A DNA stretch of 12,526 bases. It comes from Nitrososphaeraceae archaeon. Lineage in GTDB: Archaea; Thermoproteota; Nitrososphaeria; Nitrososphaerales; Nitrososphaeraceae. Position numbers and translations under genes: made by a program. The stretch lies in assembly GCA_044870765.1 (NCBI GenBank), contig JBIOZG010000025.1, forward strand, positions 1 through 12,526, written 5' to 3'. Positions 2,260-12,526 of this stretch are shown in pieces; the stretch's first letter is position 1, and each line of letters opens with the position of its first letter. The notes under the pieces were generated by a model. It did not search any database. It saw nothing but the letters and a program-made list of their open reading frames with translations, and was not told the origin of the DNA.

Positions 2260-3390
2260 TTAACCGAACGTGAAGGTATATATTTTGAATCCGTTTCCAT
2301 GCGCGTTTATTTCAATTACGTGGTTTCCATAGTTTTTATCGTTTGTAATATTGTAGAGCCTCTGACCATCTATCTTCAGCGTTCCCTCCGCATCCAGATC
2401 ATTCCCTTTTAGTGCATTACTAATATTGTTATCTTTACCATCCACCTTCACGTTTAACTGACCTTTTCCACCTGCTACGATATTTACGGATTTTGCTGAG
2501 TAATCCAGTACGATACTCCCGTTAGTTCCTACAAGCTCCATGCTGTCTGGATTGTTCTTCCATGGCCCTTTAAGGTAAATAACATTAGGTTTCAAATCAG
2601 ATGCAGGTATTGTATAGTTGACAGTTTTTTCTGGATTGAATCCTTCTGTATTTCCAAGTTGATCTCTTGCATATTGATATCCAAAGTATAATTCGGGGGT
2701 TCTGATTTGATTAAAATCAACCGATTGTGTTTGTGGCGTACTCAATTTTGTTTGATTAATATCCGCAATTTGAACACCTTGTTGCTTCATTCGTTCTGTC
2801 AACAATTGCCTAATGGCATTTTCGGTTTCCAAATAACCTCCTTCTCCGATATGATCATATATAATGTATCCTTCTGAATCTACAAGATATTTCCGTGGCC
2901 AGTAACTATTTTGATAAGCGTTCCAAATATCATGATTATTGTCCAGCAATACCGGATATTTTATTCCAAATCTTGTTACGGCTTGCTTGACGTTATCTGT
3001 ATTTTTTTCAAATTCAAATTCGGGACTATGAATTCCTACTATGACCAATCCCTTGTCAGAATATTTTTGATTCCAATCAACAAGATACGGCAAGGTCCTG
3101 ATGCAGTTAATGCAACTATATGTCCAAAAGTCAACCAATACTACTTTTCCCTTTAGATCTGACAGCTTTGTCCCGTTTGAATTAATGTACGCAGTAATTC
3201 CCTCGAACTCCGGTGCTTTTTTAAGTTGAGATTTGTCTAGTGGTAAATCTACATTTCTAATACTGCTTGCACCAATATTTTCAGGGGATGATTTATTCAG
3301 TTCAGGATTATTAAAGTAAATTGCAAATCCTACTATAAGCGCCACAACTCCTATACCAGTTAACAAGGCACTGAGGTTATCCTTATTCAG
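2260..3390 (-). CDS. Membrane-anchored thioredoxin/redoxin, DipZ-like (TlpA-like domain plus C-terminal DipZ beta domain)
   Basis: N-terminal TM (GIGVVALIVGFAIYF), LKGKVVLVDFWTYSCINCIRTLP (CxxC), GIHSPEFEFEK, YWPRKYLVD, HIGEGGY, TPELYFGY and terminal YTFTFG. The ORF track starts at TTG 3366, but the frame is open up to CTG 3390, directly after the ccdA stop. Confidence 0.9.
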   Translation of the reverse strand: MNKDNLSALLTGIGVVALIVGFAIYFNNPELNKSSPENIGASSIRNVDLPLDKSQLKKAPEFEGITAYINSNGTKLSDLKGKVVLVDFWTYSCINCIRTLPYLVDWNQKYSDKGLVIVGIHSPEFEFEKNTDNVKQAVTRFGIKYPVLLDNNHDIWNAYQNSYWPRKYLVDSEGYIIYDHIGEGGYLETENAIRQLLTERMKQQGVQIADINQTKLSTPQTQSVDFNQIRTPELYFGYQYARDQLGNTEGFNPEKTVNYTIPASDLKPNVIYLKGPWKNNPDSMELVGTNGSIVLDYSAKSVNIVAGGKGQLNVKVDGKDNNISNALKGNDLDAEGTLKIDGQRLYNITNDKNYGNHVIEINAHGNGFKIYTFTFG

Positions 3391-4158
3391 CTACGGTCCC
3401 CTTTCTATTTTGATGATCTCGTTGGCAAGTGGAAAATTACCCAGAATACTGAGATTATTTGTAAATACCAGTATTCCAAGTAATATCAACATGATTCCCA
3501 TTGCAGGATTAAAATATTTCAAATGTTTCACCATTTTTCTAATTACGCTAGTGGCCTGTGAAAAGAAAATGCTTGTTACTAAAAATGGTATTCCGAGACC
3601 TAGCGAGTATGCCAGTAGTGAATTGTAGGCGGCTCCGGGTGCGGTCGCCGCCAATGTAAGAGTACTTCCCAGTATAGGTCCCACACATGGAGTCCAACCT
3701 GCAGCAAATGCAGCTCCAAACACAAATGATGTAATGTAACTGGTCTTGAATTTAGGAATAGCAGTAAATTTCTTCTCAAAATTAAGGCGTCTCAATTTTG
3801 TAGAGAGTATCAAGTAAACACCAAATCCTATAATTACAAGACCGCCAAGAGACGTCAATACATTTTGAAAGCTTACCCCTACACTCAGCAAAATACTATT
3901 CAGAAATACCCCAAGAAGCGCAAAAACAAGAGAGAATCCCAGAACAAAATAGACGGTATTTAGAAAAATGTTTAATCTGGTGGATCTTTTTAACTTGAGA
4001 GATTGCCCTGATTGTCCTGATGAATCTTGAATTTCATTTAGCGTTGTTCCAGAAAGATACGAGACAAATGCCGGTAAAATGGGCAAAATACATGGTGAAA
4101 AAAAAGATCCTGCACCTGCAAGAGCGGAAAAAACGATGCTAGAATCGACCATATTCAT
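3391..4158 (-). CDS. ccdA: Cytochrome c biogenesis/thiol-disulfide transporter CcdA (DsbD transmembrane domain)
   Basis: About six hydrophobic helices with the two diagnostic motifs SFFSPCILPILPAFVSYL and AAGWTPCVGPILGS, plus YSLGLGIPF. Confidence 0.93.
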   Translation of the reverse strand: MNMVDSSIVFSALAGAGSFFSPCILPILPAFVSYLSGTTLNEIQDSSGQSGQSLKLKRSTRLNIFLNTVYFVLGFSLVFALLGVFLNSILLSVGVSFQNVLTSLGGLVIIGFGVYLILSTKLRRLNFEKKFTAIPKFKTSYITSFVFGAAFAAGWTPCVGPILGSTLTLAATAPGAAYNSLLAYSLGLGIPFLVTSIFFSQATSVIRKMVKHLKYFNPAMGIMLILLGILVFTNNLSILGNFPLANEIIKIERGP

Positions 4159-4318: not shown

Positions 4319-4948
4319 TTACTTCTTTATTTCTGTAAGTCGCAGCGCATCTAGATCCTGCTCTGTTTCCATCTGATTCTTGTTACCGTATACTATCAGT
4401 ATTCTATCGTCGTCCTTTATCACATAGTTTGCAATTGAGTCCGTTTTGTTTCCATTTATATAAAATTCCAAATTTGAATTTCCATTACTGCAATAGCTTG
4501 TCTTATTTTCAAGAGTGAAGCAATTATTCGTAACATTCATCCCTACGCTTCTAAAGAATTCTTCCACTGGAACTCCGGTTGCATGTCTGTGCATTGTATT
4601 GCCATCATTATTCTCGACATGGATATATTGGGATCTAACTTGGTATTGTGGCTGACTGAAATTTAGTTTTTGACCATTTATTTTGACTGCGAATGCTGCA
4701 TGAACATGTTCAGATCCAAGTGGCCCAAATTGCCGACTTGGTTTTACCAAATGTTCAGAATATATATTTACTGCATATGCCATGATGGCCAAGAGTACTA
4801 TTACAGCCGGTATAATTATCATCAAATTCTTCTTTCTTCTCTTACGAGATACGGCAAAATAGCTCTTATCATCTCGCTCTTTTCTTGGATTGAGTGCCTT
4901 GTCTTTCTTTGTGTTATTGTCTTTCTTTTTATTATTCTTCATTTTCAC
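4319..4948 (-). CDS. Membrane-anchored His-rich hypothetical protein, probable metal binder
   Basis: Basic N-terminus, one TM (LMIIIPAVIVLLAIMAYAV), then EHVHAAF, YIHVE, MHRHATG, a Cys pair (NCF..SYC) and a C-terminal FYING..YVIKDDDRILIVYG. GTG start at 4948; an ATG also lies at 4942. Confidence 0.85.
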   Translation of the reverse strand: MKMKNNKKKDNNTKKDKALNPRKERDDKSYFAVSRKRRKKNLMIIIPAVIVLLAIMAYAVNIYSEHLVKPSRQFGPLGSEHVHAAFAVKINGQKLNFSQPQYQVRSQYIHVENNDGNTMHRHATGVPVEEFFRSVGMNVTNNCFTLENKTSYCSNGNSNLEFYINGNKTDSIANYVIKDDDRILIVYGNKNQMETEQDLDALRLTEIKK

Positions 4949-5054: not shown

Positions 5055-6482
5055 TTACGGGCTAGTGTAGATTTGTTTGAATTTTTCAGGCAATTCAGGG
5101 TTGCCATATTCGTCAGAATACGCAGAATAGACATTTATTTTCTCTCCATGCTTAATCTCGTAAGATCCAATCAACCTTATGTTATTCCTGTATTCTTCGT
5201 AAAGTGGTATTAACTGCATAGCAAAGTTTTCAGTAATGAGAATGTGCCAGCTGTCACCCAAGTCCATAACTCTCCTTGCCATTATTATGCCCGGACCCCA
5301 AACGTTAAGCCTGTTTGATATATCATAAACCGTAAATACAGGTCCAGAGCTCAGACCGATTCTTACCTTTATTCTGTTTTCAGGTTCCATTCGCTTATTA
5401 TATTTGCGTAAATATCCATGTAGCTCAACACTGAGTTTGTAAGGCAATTCCGGATTGTTTTCATACCCTATAGCCATGCCGTCACCTGCCGGAAGAATTA
5501 TTTTCTGCTCATCGGATATTTTCCTAAACGAATTACAGGAACTTATGAATTCATTCAGTCTGACTATCTTTTCCTTCTGCCTGTGAACCGCCAGTTCTGG
5601 ATTAGATAGTCCTACAATATCAATGAAGCAAAAATGATAATTCAATACTTCGTATTTTGGATCAAGGTCCTTGAAGACCGACATAAATTTTCTATATGTT
5701 CTTGCGCATCCTTCCGTATGAAATGGCAAGTCAAGATAATATACCGGAGGATGTTGAATGACTCTTCCGTCCAGAGTACATTTAAGTAAATCATAAGCAA
5801 AGGTGAATCTTCCATTTTTATCAATATTAAACTGTATCCAAGTAGGTTTGGTCATTGCATGGCCAGCCATTGAAAGTAATCGTATTTTCCTAATCAAAGA
5901 GTCATTAGACTCTTCAAATTTCATCTCCATTATCCCATCACAAAAAGACATTATGGGGTGATATTCTGAAGATGCGGGAGTATCAATAGTGAAAATTCCA
6001 ATTGTCTTTTTTTTCTTTAATTGAAAAATCAATTTTGTCAAAAACCTCCTTACTGAATCCACTTCAAAAATATTACAAAAATGATTTAACGAATCCATGA
6101 CAAAGTAAACTATATTGTTTTCATCTAGACTGTGACTGTCATTTTGATCTTTGGAAGCATCAATTTGTATATCTGAAAGAAAAGAAGTTATTCTACCCAA
6201 TGCTTCATCTAGTGACTTTTGATTTGGGGTATCGTAAAGGAGAACGGGATTTACAAATAGTGAATTGAATTTCTTCCCATCGATGTTAAGTAATTCAAAT
6301 TTTTCTTTATCAGTGACCTTCGAAGAAAGAAAGATGCATTTTTTTCTAGAACTTAAACCCTCTTCAAGAAATTCTCTACAATAATCTCTCTTTCCTATTC
6401 CAGGTGGGCCAGACAAGAGAAACAATGTCGGTGAAATATTTTCCTCACCGTCTGTGAGTTCAGCGAGTCCCGGAATAGTCAT
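5055..6482 (-). CDS. Fusion of a KaiC/RAD55-like (RecA-fold) ATPase domain, a TRASH-like linker and a class III (adenylate/guanylate-type) nucleotidyl cyclase
   Basis: N-terminal TIPGLAEL, FLLSGPPGIGKR (Walker A-like), FVMDSL (Walker B), FCDGIMEMK, RKIRL. Middle CTLDGRVI..FHTEGCARTY. C-terminal FIDIVGLS, AGDGMAI, VRIGLSSGPV, NVWGPGIIMARRVMD, HILIT, IKHG. Confidence 0.88.
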   Translation of the reverse strand: MTIPGLAELTDGEENISPTLFLLSGPPGIGKRDYCREFLEEGLSSRKKCIFLSSKVTDKEKFELLNIDGKKFNSLFVNPVLLYDTPNQKSLDEALGRITSFLSDIQIDASKDQNDSHSLDENNIVYFVMDSLNHFCNIFEVDSVRRFLTKLIFQLKKKKTIGIFTIDTPASSEYHPIMSFCDGIMEMKFEESNDSLIRKIRLLSMAGHAMTKPTWIQFNIDKNGRFTFAYDLLKCTLDGRVIQHPPVYYLDLPFHTEGCARTYRKFMSVFKDLDPKYEVLNYHFCFIDIVGLSNPELAVHRQKEKIVRLNEFISSCNSFRKISDEQKIILPAGDGMAIGYENNPELPYKLSVELHGYLRKYNKRMEPENRIKVRIGLSSGPVFTVYDISNRLNVWGPGIIMARRVMDLGDSWHILITENFAMQLIPLYEEYRNNIRLIGSYEIKHGEKINVYSAYSDEYGNPELPEKFKQIYTSP

Positions 6483-6506
6483 TTGACATATTATATCAAA
6501 TTGGGT

Positions 6507-6523
6507 CTATATACCTGTTTTTT
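6507..6523 (-). promoter_or_regulatory. Putative BRE/TATA promoter for the KaiC-cyclase gene
   Basis: Minus strand reads AAAAAACAG-GTATATAG, ending about 25 nt upstream of ATG 6482, which fits a leaderless or short-leader archaeal transcript. Confidence 0.45.
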
Positions 6524-6556
6524 GTGCCTGTGAAAAACAATGAAAAATCTATTGTT

Positions 6557-7426
6557 TCATATTTCTATCATAGATTTTAACTGGTTTATTTGTTCTGAAA
6601 AAGGATGATCAGGATAACCAAGAACTGTTAAGAATTCCTTCTGGGCAAATTGGATATCGCAATAACAAGGGATTGATGTCAATATATCGATTCCCGTCTC
6701 AGAACTCAGTTTCTTTACAAAATCGTCTGCCACTGGAGTTAGCGTGGTATAATTTGTATCAGAATAATTTTCGTGAGATTCACCAATTTGCAAATGAGGA
6801 ATACAGTAACCTGCTATCCTGTTAAGAAGTAGATGATATTTTGTGTTTCCCTGTTCCTTGAATTGTGCCAATATTTCATTTGCAATCATCTTTGTTCCTC
6901 CAATATCCATGTCTCCCATCTTTAAAGTCAAAAATACAATATCTGATAATGCCAAAGCATTAATCGCCCAAAATCTGATTCCTGGACTTGAATCCATTAT
7001 TACATAGTCAATATCATTTTTTTCGATTAATTCTTCTCTAAAGTTAATGAATCTCTTGAGCATGGTCATTCTGTTTCTATCCTCCTTTACACCTTCAATT
7101 TTGAGAATATCTTCTCTTTTAGGACTAGAAAAACAGCCTATTATTTTTCCATTCAAAGAACCTTTCTCTGAGAATTGTTGTATGGGTGTTACCTCAACTA
7201 GCAAGTCATCTACTCCGCAGGCACCCACAATGTAATCATTCAGGGTATTCTTGATCTTACTTTGGACGACATCGCCGAAATAAGCATGTAGGCTTGGTGC
7301 ATATACATCGATATCAACTATACATACATTGTTTCCATTTTTAGCTAATAATGCGGCCAGGTTAGCTGCCAAAGTAGTTTTTCCAGTGCCGCCCTTATAC
7401 GAGTGAAATGTAATAACTTGCTTCAA
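6557..7426 (-). CDS. MinD/ParA-family ATPase
   Basis: Deviant Walker A HSYKGGTGKTT, switch I VDIDVYAPSLH, Walker B DYVIMDSSPG, and LLLNRI. TTG start. No obvious C-terminal membrane-targeting amphipathic tail. Confidence 0.92.
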   Translation of the reverse strand: MKQVITFHSYKGGTGKTTLAANLAALLAKNGNNVCIVDIDVYAPSLHAYFGDVVQSKIKNTLNDYIVGACGVDDLLVEVTPIQQFSEKGSLNGKIIGCFSSPKREDILKIEGVKEDRNRMTMLKRFINFREELIEKNDIDYVIMDSSPGIRFWAINALALSDIVFLTLKMGDMDIGGTKMIANEILAQFKEQGNTKYHLLLNRIAGYCIPHLQIGESHENYSDTNYTTLTPVADDFVKKLSSETGIDILTSIPCYCDIQFAQKEFLTVLGYPDHPFSEQINQLKSMIEI

Positions 7427-7651: not shown

Positions 7652-7726
7652 TGCGAAGTGCGGGATTCGAACCCGCGATCCCGAGCTTGGGAAGCTCGTA
7701 CCTTAACCGGTCTGGGCTAACTTCGC
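7652..7726 (-). tRNA. tRNA-Gly: tRNA-Gly (anticodon CCC), intronless, CCA not encoded
   Basis: GCGAAGT TA GCCCAGACCGGTTAAGGT A CGAGC-TTCCCAA-GCTCG GGATC GCGGG-TTCGAAT-CCCGC ACTTCGC A. It has a perfect 7-bp acceptor stem, 5-bp anticodon and T stems, and discriminator A. Confidence 0.97.
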
Positions 7727-10732: not shown

Positions 10733-11497
10733 TTGAACAATAGTCCATCGTTGAAGATATCTCTAATTCTAGGAACAATTATTATGATCGGAACTATTGT
10801 TCTTTTTAATAATAACAACATATACGCAAAGCAGGCGATCTGGAGAGACTTTGATAACATGAAAGACTTGGTAGCCGCAATAAGAAGTGGAGAAAAAAAC
10901 GATAATAATATTAATTGGGAAAAATTCCAAGACTCGGGAATATATCAGAATGAAGATAAAGACTCCAAAGAATGCCTCCAACTTGCACATAAAATAGGAA
11001 ATAACCTTGGAGACTACGAAATTGTCCATTGCTTCAGGGATGAAAATTATTTTAAGAACAAATATACTGAACCTGAAGCACCTGAACCTCAGCCAGAAAC
11101 CAACGCCTCCCTAAATGTCCCTGAACCTCAGCCAGAAACCAACGCCTCCCTAAATGTCCCTGAGGTACCTGAAACCAACTCTTCTGAATTAGTTACTCCA
11201 CGAAGTATAGACCTTAACATTACTGTTGGCAAAGATCCTATTGCTCGCGGTGAAAATCAAATGGTCACAGTTGTAGCATTGGACCCCACTACGGGTAACG
11301 TGCTTGATCGAGTTTTTATTAAACTTGAAATTAAGGATCCAGTTGGCATTCTTGTCAAGAATTATACTGATACAGAGGGTAATCTCACACGTACCTTTAA
11401 AATAGGCGAGAATGCAATCGGAACCTTTATGATTTCAGCGACTGCATCACAAGCAGGTGTTCAAAGCATGAAATCTCTCTCATTTCAAGTACAGTAA
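10733..11497 (+). CDS. Secreted putative glycoprotein: helical two-Cys domain, Pro/Glu repeat linker and C-terminal Ig-like beta domain
   Basis: Signal-like ISLILGTIIMIGTIVLF..IYA; Cys pair (KECLQ..IVHCF); PEPQPETNASLNV repeats; beta-strand-like C-terminus (ITVGKDPIARGENQMVTV..TFKIG..SLSFQVQ); sequons NAS, NAS, NSS, NIT, NYT, NLT. Confidence 0.85.
   Translation: MNNSPSLKISLILGTIIMIGTIVLFNNNNIYAKQAIWRDFDNMKDLVAAIRSGEKNDNNINWEKFQDSGIYQNEDKDSKECLQLAHKIGNNLGDYEIVHCFRDENYFKNKYTEPEAPEPQPETNASLNVPEPQPETNASLNVPEVPETNSSELVTPRSIDLNITVGKDPIARGENQMVTVVALDPTTGNVLDRVFIKLEIKDPVGILVKNYTDTEGNLTRTFKIGENAIGTFMISATASQAGVQSMKSLSFQVQ
11081..11163 (+). repeat. 39-bp coding tandem repeat, 2 exact copies plus a partial (PEPQPETNASLNV)
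   Basis: cctgaacctcagccagaaaccaacgcctccctaaatgtc at 11081 and 11120, then cctga at 11159. Confidence 0.95.
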
Positions 11498-12000: not shown

Positions 12001-12031
12001 ACTTACCTAAACTTGATTCGTGACTACACAA

Positions 12032-12041
12032 TTTTTTATAT
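12032..12041 (+). promoter_or_regulatory. Putative TATA box
   Basis: TTTTTTATAT about 20 nt upstream of ATG 12061. Confidence 0.45.
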
Positions 12042-12060
12042 GTTGTTGTTGAATTCTAAA

Positions 12061-12526
12061 ATGTTGAACAAAGAACAATCGGTACAAACATCTCTTCTAT
12101 TCATGATAATTATTACTCTTAATACGTTATTTTTTGTTGGCAATATGATTTCAGTACAAGCAAGTACCGGAACATCCTCAGATACTGGAAGCAACGGTAG
12201 ATCAATTTCCAATGGTACTTCAATTGCCGATCAAGAAGAAAGCAGATTGATGAACGAGCTTGTGAAAACAGGTAAGTTCACAAAAGATGAAGCTAGAGAA
12301 TTTGTGACAAAAGTGATGTTGATGAACGAGCTTGTGAAAACAGGTAAGTTCACAAAAGATGAAGCTAGAGAATTTGTGACAAAAGTGATGAAGAATGGAA
12401 CCGATGGAACCAATGTAAATGCTGGATCAAAAGCTCCTGTCCCTGAAGCTAACCTATCTGCTAATGTTCCTGTCCCTGAAGCTAACCTATCTGCTAATGT
12501 TCCTGTCCCTGAAGCTAACCTATCTG
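12061..12526 (+). CDS. Secreted repeat-containing putative glycoprotein; 3' end runs off the window
   Basis: Not in the ORF track. Manual translation: MLNKEQSVQTSLLFMIIITLNTLFFVGNMISVQA-STGTSSDTGSNGRSISNGTSIADQEESR(LMNELVKTGKFTKDEAREFVTKVM)x2 KNGTDGTNVNAGSKA(PVPEANLSANV)x2+. No stop up to the window end. Confidence 0.88.
   Translation, partial: MLNKEQSVQTSLLFMIIITLNTLFFVGNMISVQASTGTSSDTGSNGRSISNGTSIADQEESRLMNELVKTGKFTKDEAREFVTKVMLMNELVKTGKFTKDEAREFVTKVMKNGTDGTNVNAGSKAPVPEANLSANVPVPEANLSANVPVPEANLS
12247..12390 (+). repeat. Exact 72-bp tandem duplication (24 aa)
   Basis: ttgatgaacgagctt...aaaagtgatg at 12247-12318 and 12319-12390, identical. Confidence 0.97.
12436..12526 (+). repeat. 33-bp coding tandem repeat, at least 2.7 exact copies (PVPEANLSANV)
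   Basis: cctgtccctgaagctaacctatctgctaatgtt at 12436, 12469 and 12502 (the last truncated by the window end). Confidence 0.96.

Follow-up and report, generated by a model that had tools for sequence, protein, structure and literature searches.

The ParA/MinD family of ATPases is known above all for positioning cargo, and FleN provides a case in which a MinD-type ATPase regulates a signaling protein, FleQ. According to a preprint by Li, Burroughs and Aravind (bioRxiv 10.64898/2026.10.19.760177; hereafter the ParA preprint), binding of a partner at the ATP dimer is the rule for this family, while fusions of iKaiC proteins to signaling domains have been described separately (PMC5847659). A 2023 review states that among archaeal enzymes none that makes, degrades, or binds 3',5'-cAMP has been characterized, nor any that makes cGMP, cCMP, or cUMP (PMC10249747). 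Here we describe a two-gene unit on a contig of 12,526 nt (hereafter the window) within the 2.0-Mb genome of a Nitrososphaeraceae archaeon. Close homologues of the fusion described below bear the same family name, on which ground the host is taken to be an ammonia oxidizer of soil. One gene encodes a ParA/MinD-type ATPase, and the other a protein, termed the fusion below, that joins a KaiC-like domain, a ~45-residue cysteine knuckle with a conserved helix (the tag, which forms the linker of the fusion), and a class III cyclase domain. It is the tag, and not the KaiC or the cyclase domain, that is common to all partner architectures of this ATPase, because some of them have no KaiC and others no cyclase.

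As the original prediction for this stretch had described, the two genes are co-oriented and 74 bp apart, both open reading frames (ORFs) lying on the minus strand with the gap at 6483-6556. No ParB, MinC/E, or chemotaxis gene was among the 14 window ORFs scanned by Pfam, again as described. The features of the unit are:

6557-7426, minus strand: gene of the ParA/MinD-type (SIMIBI) ATPase, 289 aa, TTG start (Pfam AAA_31/ParA/CbiA, fold matches, motifs)
5055-6482, minus strand: gene of the fusion, 475 aa, with an apparently inactive KaiC-like domain, knuckle-helix tag, and class III cyclase (Pfam, alignment, model)
5799-6482, minus strand: KaiC/RAD55-like domain, aa 1-228, catalytically degenerate (PF06745, FlaH/KaiC fold match)
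5658-5786, minus strand: TRASH/YHS-like Cys/His knuckle and conserved helix, aa 233-275 (tag profile, linkage tallies)
5073-5645, minus strand: class III nucleotidyl cyclase domain, aa 280-470 (PF00211, alignment, nearest structure Ma1120)
6659-6667, minus strand: C254-Y-C256 motif of the ATPase, candidate metal or redox site (invariance in relatives)
6803-6805, minus strand: C208 codon of the ATPase (invariance in relatives)
6508-6523, minus strand: TATA-like box with a purine-rich upstream run, candidate fusion promoter (31 to 26 bases before the fusion ATG)

That the two genes form a conserved unit was borne out by a second, paralogous pair on contig C3 of the host genome (44-bp gap, 42% ATPase identity) and by conservation across genera; of 7106 candidates in searches with the fusion, 854 were homologues at E<=0.001. 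Across the order (301 genomes), members of the cyclase family were present in 67/73 genomes of the window's family, 25/73 of a second family, and 6/9 of a third, and the ATPase subfamily in 64/73, 2/73, and 0/9, respectively. Gene neighborhoods were compared at 40 loci, which had been selected on cyclase score ahead of the search for the ATPase across the order. At 20 of 27 tag-cyclase loci the ATPase lay directly upstream on the same strand, with a gap of at most 0.84 kb, and at four more it was downstream or convergent within ~2 kb (24/27 in total), the KaiC domain being present in 25 of these 27 tag-cyclases. Where the same cyclase family occurred without the tag and without KaiC, the ATPase was present at 0/13 loci. 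Six of twelve further loci had the series ATPase, fusion, and convergent free tag, two ended at a contig edge, and one had a lone ATPase. Three long cyclases from ATPase-less genomes, considered as possible counter-examples, proved to lack both KaiC and the tag.

The ATPase was also found with other outputs, as the original prediction had proposed to check: its partners carried a cyclase, a histidine kinase, or neither. Among twenty loci around ATPase copies that were not beside a fusion, eight adjoined HisKA/HATPase kinases bearing the tag (tag-kinases), and two more such loci were found later (10 in total); at one locus a tag-kinase, the ATPase, and the fusion stood in series. Moreover, both of the second-family genomes that have the ATPase (2/73) had it preceding a KaiC-less tag-cyclase. 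The kinase-linked ATPases fell in two separate parts of the ATPase tree, mixed with cyclase-linked ones, in a reconstruction made by a quick search, with 20 near-duplicate loci omitted and long branches present. A profile of the tag, run over the whole of 11 genomes, matched at 37 sites, 27 of them within 3 kb of an ATPase gene (0.19 expected), a linkage that is overstated in that the profile was built partly from the counted loci and the genomes were hand-chosen; several of the near-ATPase matches were nevertheless outside the building set of the profile. In six single-contig genomes the tag was near the ATPase (3 kb) in 14/14 cases. Finally, 61 of the 73 genomes of the window's family had both the ATPase and the tag, seven had neither, three had the ATPase only, and two had the tag only.

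The best out-of-sample test came from a search beyond the order (351 genomes of the phylum), where loci encoding a KaiC-tag protein were recovered by a profile that had not included them. In one genome from outside the order, the gene of a full-length ATPase of this subfamily precedes, by 11 bp, that of a 282-aa protein composed of KaiC and tag, with no cyclase, which was 27% identical to the first 270 residues of the fusion. In the genus of that genome, the KaiC-tag protein was present in 6/25 genomes and was directly behind the ATPase in all six, two of the pairs being frameshifted, and five of these six loci had a second, canonical-looking KaiC gene nearby.

Across these architectures the ligands of the tag vary (CCCC-like, CCHH, and CxxD in the window copy) while its helix is conserved and runs directly into the first cyclase strand or into the kinase sensor region; in the HisKA/HATPase kinases the tag is an N-terminal CxxC knuckle and helix, the same as the fusion linker. 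Matches to known knuckles were weak and all under Pfam cut-offs (YHS, TRASH, and LIM; at E<=0.5, YHS in 11/47 and TRASH families in 5/47 members, best 7e-05). Free tags of 50-100 aa, typically ~60 aa, were encoded beside many loci. Separately, the window's genus has tag-bearing proteins of 280-340 aa that resemble tag-kinases with the kinase domain mostly or wholly lost (L100-L106).

The ATPase appeared intact, in keeping with the original prediction. It matched Pfam AAA_31 at 71.4 bits (cut-off 27), as well as ParA and CbiA, and carried the marks of the SIMIBI ParA/MinD clade, as defined in the ParA preprint: a KGGxGK[ST] Walker A, DxD sensor, DhhhhD Walker B, and the lone Asn of [NT]KxD. S9, the signature K11, K16, D38, D40, D140, D145, and N202 were invariant in 51/51 aligned relatives, and by the criteria of the same preprint the PriB2 serine was present and the ConB2 arginine absent. 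The nearest folds to its structural model (predicted local distance difference test, pLDDT, 81) were archaeal MinD, Soj, and ParA. No C-terminal membrane helix was present in the model, which ends with a core helix (275-288), and the protein is acidic, with an isoelectric point (pI) of 5.3 (median 5.8 in relatives) and a net charge of -6 over the last 95 aa (median -3). Three cysteines, C208, C254, and C256, were invariant in 51/51 sequences; the CxC was kept in 27/27 complete relatives outside the order, and the third cysteine occurred in 1/25 of those relatives with a readable loop. The C208 and CxC loops correspond to segments of Soj that we take to flank the adenine pocket and to bear DNA-binding arginines.

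No NCBIfam family reached its cut-off for the ATPase or for the fusion, and three assignments within the clade were rejected (scores and cut-offs in parentheses). A cell-division MinD was rejected on the missing membrane helix, the scores of TIGR01968 (48.6/212.9) and TIGR01969 (46.2/201.75), and the absence of minC/minE among the window ORFs. A partition ParA/Soj was rejected on the pI of 5.3 and net -6 tail, NF041546 (62.1/180), and the position of the genome's single ParB match on another contig. An immune ParA of the ConB2/KGGVGR type was rejected on K16 in 51/51, A43-P44-S45 after DxD (no PG), and NF047398 (78.4/90). Most relatives of the ATPase outside the order follow a gene with a long helix and a winged helix (by eye; L119-L145), for which 5/5 scanned matched TrmB-type profiles, and a TackOD1 domain is joined to one of them (L136). 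A ParB-type gene after a tag-kinase, (a receiver), and the ATPase occurs in just one other genus (L079, L087, L088, L112). A distant MinD-like gene, in which Arg replaces the signature Lys, is flanked by a V4R gene and archaellum genes (L035:5921-7782). Beyond the phylum, related clusters were commonest in Heimdallarchaeota, Bathyarchaeota, and Chloroflexota, an Atlas listing that offers leads only.

The anatomy proposed for the fusion, a KaiC domain, Cys/His linker, and cyclase, was upheld as to the order of its parts, with the refinements that the KaiC domain is no intact ATPase and that the cyclase is atypical. The N-terminal domain belongs to the KaiC-like superfamily by profile (PF06745, aa 3-224, 40.1 bits, cut-off 26.6) and by its RecA-type fold, the N-terminal part of the model matching FlaH/KaiC/PH0186 folds (FlaH, E 3.2e-12). 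However, KaiC YEES aligned to S53-S54-K55 and FKMRG to S204-M-A-G, the Walker A ends in GKR instead of GK[ST] in the window fusion's lineage, and both the catalytic Glu-Glu and the K-x-R finger were lost in 22/22 aligned fusions. With the GKR Walker A, the Glu pair turned to SSK, and the K-x-R finger to SMA, an active KaiC-like ATPase was rejected, and the domain is best read from the alignment as an inactivated KaiC. It is also the least conserved part of the fusion, whereas the cyclase is the best conserved. The AlphaFold2 model of the fusion gave a predicted template modeling score (pTM) of 0.48 and a tag pLDDT <50, from which no domain arrangement could be read.

The C-terminal domain matched Guanylate_cyc (PF00211, aa 350-449, 26.4 bits, cut-off 21.9), and by sequence it is a class III cyclase that keeps the metal aspartates D288 and D334, the catalytic R404, and the class III fold; these three positions were invariant in 41/41 diverse cyclase domains. 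In alignment with Ma1120 and AC II, the purine-selecting Lys and Asp were replaced by L330 and N393, and the transition-state Asn by I400. A census of 143 fused sequences, in which close relatives weigh heavily, gave the same picture (Lys site L/V/F; Asp site N in 141 or D in 2; Asn site I/V). A canonical adenylyl or guanylyl cyclase was rejected, the base-selecting pair (Lys+Asp/Thr or Glu+Cys) and the transition-state Asn being absent. The nearest solved structure was Ma1120 (E 1.9e-9), an active adenylyl cyclase with Ala at the position of the transition-state Asn (PMC4215837). Activity with a non-canonical site is plausible, because the metal Asp pair and the Arg are invariant and Ma1120 is active without the Asn, and we regard the domain as a predicted, not demonstrated, maker of a cyclic nucleotide. 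Second-messenger synthesis, which the original prediction had placed at the center of the module, is unproven, as 3/6 canonical active-site residues are missing.

A Pycsar or other defense role was rejected, with 0 PADLOC families matching the fusion, the only match to a cyclic-nucleotide-monophosphate (cNMP)-binding domain on another contig, and the unit conserved across the family. That sole cNMP-binding domain is at C4:15637-17346, on a protein that by eye is thioredoxin-reductase-like. The host genome has seven further class III cyclase genes (contigs C22, C36, C19, C54, C26, C15, C44), several with receiver-like tails by eye. A second architecture of the same cyclase family, a cyclase and, after it, a ~200-aa domain that had no Pfam match, is found in three families of the order and never adjoins the ATPase (L063-L075).

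The gap between the genes held a TATA-like box at -31 before the fusion ATG in 13/13 close relatives with a short gap; at that position it was absent from the 4 other upstream regions compared. The fusion likely has its own promoter, judging from this box, because of which co-transcription is not to be assumed and a simple operon becomes doubtful. A sigma-70 scan was at chance (12 found, 11.2 expected), with a model not apt for archaea. Portions of both genes are represented in contigs from four soil metatranscriptomes, and one contig (6250-6802, run X4) spans the gap; these contigs carry neither strand nor proof of a single transcript and were not used as evidence.

We put at about even the chance that the ATPase binds the knuckle-helix tag of its neighbor and thereby switches the attached output, making it a candidate docking switch. 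The two-gene unit of the original prediction is retained and its controlled target, the KaiC scaffold, is not, because the ATPase also adjoins KaiC-less cyclases and kinases and the KaiC domain is without catalytic glutamates and K-x-R finger. In the proposed switch, the ATP-bound ATPase dimer would offer two binding sites and grip two tags. Cyclases and histidine kinases work as dimers, and because the tag helix joins the output directly, the grip could set the dimer geometry, and hence the activity, of the attached enzyme. ATP hydrolysis would release the grip, and free ~60-aa tags might act as competitors for the ATPase or set off its hydrolysis. The KaiC domain, dead as an enzyme, may be a nucleotide-binding or oligomer scaffold from an older pair of ATPase and KaiC-tag protein. 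Least certain is the input, for which our leading guess is a metal or thiol-redox signal read by the ATPase cysteines and the knuckle. The fullest version of this scheme would be a signaling hub of a fourth archaeal kind, which we consider rather doubtful as a whole: a Cys-bearing ParA-type ATPase, originating in a pair of ATPase and KaiC-tag protein, would read metal or redox state and switch any tag-bearing enzyme, be it a histidine kinase, a KaiC-like protein, or an atypical cyclase whose cyclic nucleotide would be non-purine or unusual in some other way, with free tags as antagonists.

Several observations weigh against the docking switch, for which the support is all genomic. The window copy of the tag is degenerate (C235-x2-D238...H255-x3-C259, no YG), its relatives having mostly CxxC. 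Three of the 27 tag-cyclase loci were without the ATPase in the stretch examined, tag-kinases without the ATPase occurred in three genera, and 4/6 tags of the host genome were on contigs without it. Conversely, 4/20 ATPase copies had no tag within 3 kb, and some tag-less copies are at the same chromosomal site as in the window, with the fusion absent there. In two close relatives, 2.5 and 4.3 kb are inserted between the ATPase and fusion genes, and the seven family genomes with neither ATPase nor tag are all of one genus and may reflect a single loss. The cyclase is without three canonical residues, and the host genome has nine class III cyclase matches and only one cNMP-binding-domain match. 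Under copper limitation of a cultured relative, a CbiA/ParA-annotated gene rose by 0.63 log2, in an experiment where half of all genes changed, and its 494-aa neighbor, paired with the fusion by annotation only, was unchanged (PMC7785015).

Some of the same evidence can be read differently. The ATPase could act on the KaiC-like domain, as FleN does on the AAA+ protein FleQ, altering its oligomeric state and so the cyclase; the KaiC-tag pair outside the order, with a canonical-looking second KaiC at 5/6 loci, would place KaiC in the old core, 25/27 tag-cyclases carry KaiC, and FleN-FleQ complexes were among the fold matches. We nonetheless judge this unlikely, as the ATPase keeps company with cyclases that have no KaiC, with kinases, and with free tags, and the KaiC domain, of all parts the least conserved, is without the inter-subunit K-x-R finger. 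Comparably improbable is a metal chaperone, in which the CxC (with C208) would load or strip the knuckle metal and occupancy, not a lasting grip, would set the output. Three invariant cysteines on the ATPase are consistent with this, free tags resemble small chaperones, and thiol-redox genes are next in the window; TRASH domains sense copper in CopR (PMC7830388), and ParA-type proteins have been proposed as metallochaperones in the ParA preprint. However, the CxC predates the tag, being kept in relatives with a winged-helix partner, the ligands of the tag vary whereas its helix is conserved, and the putative partner gene, paired by annotation only, showed no copper response (PMC7785015). A positioning role, where tag-bearing proteins would be moved along the nucleoid or membrane with unchanged activity, as by the ParC or McdA systems, is distinctly improbable: it accords with the family's usual job and with the ParB-type gene that follows the ATPase in one genus, but the ATPase model has no C-terminal membrane helix, the one ParB match of the host genome lies on a different contig, and the protein is acidic, whereas nucleoid binders use basic residues (ParA preprint).

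Two further possibilities concern the cyclase and the linkage itself. The unit may be a real complex whose cyclase is a pseudo-enzyme or nucleotide sensor producing no second messenger, a possibility that we estimated independently of the other readings and hold to be unlikely, though to be taken seriously. The Lys, Asp, and Asn sites are replaced in at least 141/143 fused sequences, the pair exists without a cyclase outside the order, and no obvious receptor is nearby; on the other side, the metal aspartates and the arginine are invariant in 41/41, no part of the fusion is as well conserved as the cyclase, and the active Ma1120 is also without the Asn (PMC4215837). Lastly, the genes might be neighbors only, through a shared regulon or joint travel with no direct contact. 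The likely separate fusion promoter and the tolerance of insertions, inversions, and unlinked copies agree with this, yet linkage tracks one small domain through four architectures, two orders, and varied orientations, which leaves it a slim prospect.

Around the unit, a tRNA-Gly(CCC) is at window 7652-7726 (minus strand), 225 bp upstream of the ATPase gene. On the other side, window 4319-4948 (minus strand) encodes a membrane-anchored protein of 209 aa, rich in His and without a Pfam family, whose gene still adjoins the ATPase where the fusion is missing from the site (L033, L077, L081, L083). Downstream of it are CcdA/DsbD and then a thioredoxin-like protein (3391-4158 and 2260-3366, minus strand). 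Secreted-looking proteins with short tandem repeats are encoded at 2-931, 10733-11497, and 12013-12525, the first with Big_9 Ig-like domains. Elsewhere in the host genome, contig C16:16131-21441 has defense-like genes of the TIR and STAND-NTPase types (by eye) near the genome's ParB-type gene.

The unit is real and conserved and was not found in print; it is a variant of ParA-partner switching made of known parts, for which we infer the mechanism. The pairing of ATPase and KaiC-tag-cyclase did not appear in the literature searched, and a mention in Makarova, Galperin and Koonin 2017 (KaiC hubs) or in the supplements of the ParA preprint is possible. The words "KaiC" and "treble" are absent from the main text of that preprint, as are "cyclase" and "MinD" from PMC5847659. 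This analysis adds the pair that has no cyclase, found outside the order, the pair that has no KaiC, the set of cysteines, the counts set against controls, and the fusion's likely promoter of its own. The unit is in most genomes of the dominant family of soil ammonia oxidizers (ATPase 64/73, cyclase family 67/73), and it is small, soluble, and cheap to test in vitro. It makes two questions testable, namely which nucleotide is made by a class III cyclase from archaea whose site is non-canonical, and whether a ParA-type ATPase serves as a signaling switch via a portable tag on cyclases and histidine kinases. Were the hub to prove true, it would be the first defined cyclic-nucleotide synthase pathway in archaea.

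Compared part by part with known systems, the cyclase shares metal aspartates, arginine, and fold motifs with Ma1120, Rv1900c, and Pycsar PycC, and the transition-state Asn is missing from both it and Ma1120, but unlike class III cyclases it is without the Lys/Glu or Asp/Cys base-selecting pair. Further from Pycsar, the fusion had no PADLOC match and is conserved and near-universal in the family, unlike defense genes. The KaiC domain shares fold and profile with FlaH/ArlH, PH0186, PH0284, and iKaiC, whereas here it is fused to a tag and cyclase and has lost the catalytic Glu pair and K-x-R finger. With the TRASH sensors and chaperones CopR/CopT and CopM, the tag family shares weak YHS/TRASH matches and the existence of free ~60-aa versions, but it falls under Pfam cut-offs, has an extra conserved helix, and had no cop genes in the neighborhoods examined.

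Among systems treated in the ParA preprint (bioRxiv 10.64898/2026.10.19.760177), the ATPase relatives outside the order that accompany a winged-helix gene resemble archaeal ParA-wHTH (winged helix-turn-helix) pairs. PAACC is likewise a ParA-linked cyclase, but one that is ConB1, fast-evolving, and immune-linked, and the window ATPase differs from ConB2 in keeping the Walker A Lys and in being without the PG motif that marks ConB2. The fold and all family motifs are shared with the MinD-MinE/MinC, ParA-ParB, ParC, McdA-McdB, and FlhG systems. Relative to such MinD/ParA proteins with dedicated partners, this ATPase has no membrane helix, an acidic C-terminal part, and three invariant cysteines, and its predicted partner is a knuckle-helix tag on signaling enzymes. 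FleN-FleQ of Pseudomonas also invites comparison, FleN being among both the sequence and the fold matches of the ATPase and the complex being shown by Protein Data Bank (PDB) titles; whereas FleQ is an AAA+ transcription activator, the target here would be the small tag of cyclases, kinases, and KaiC-like proteins.

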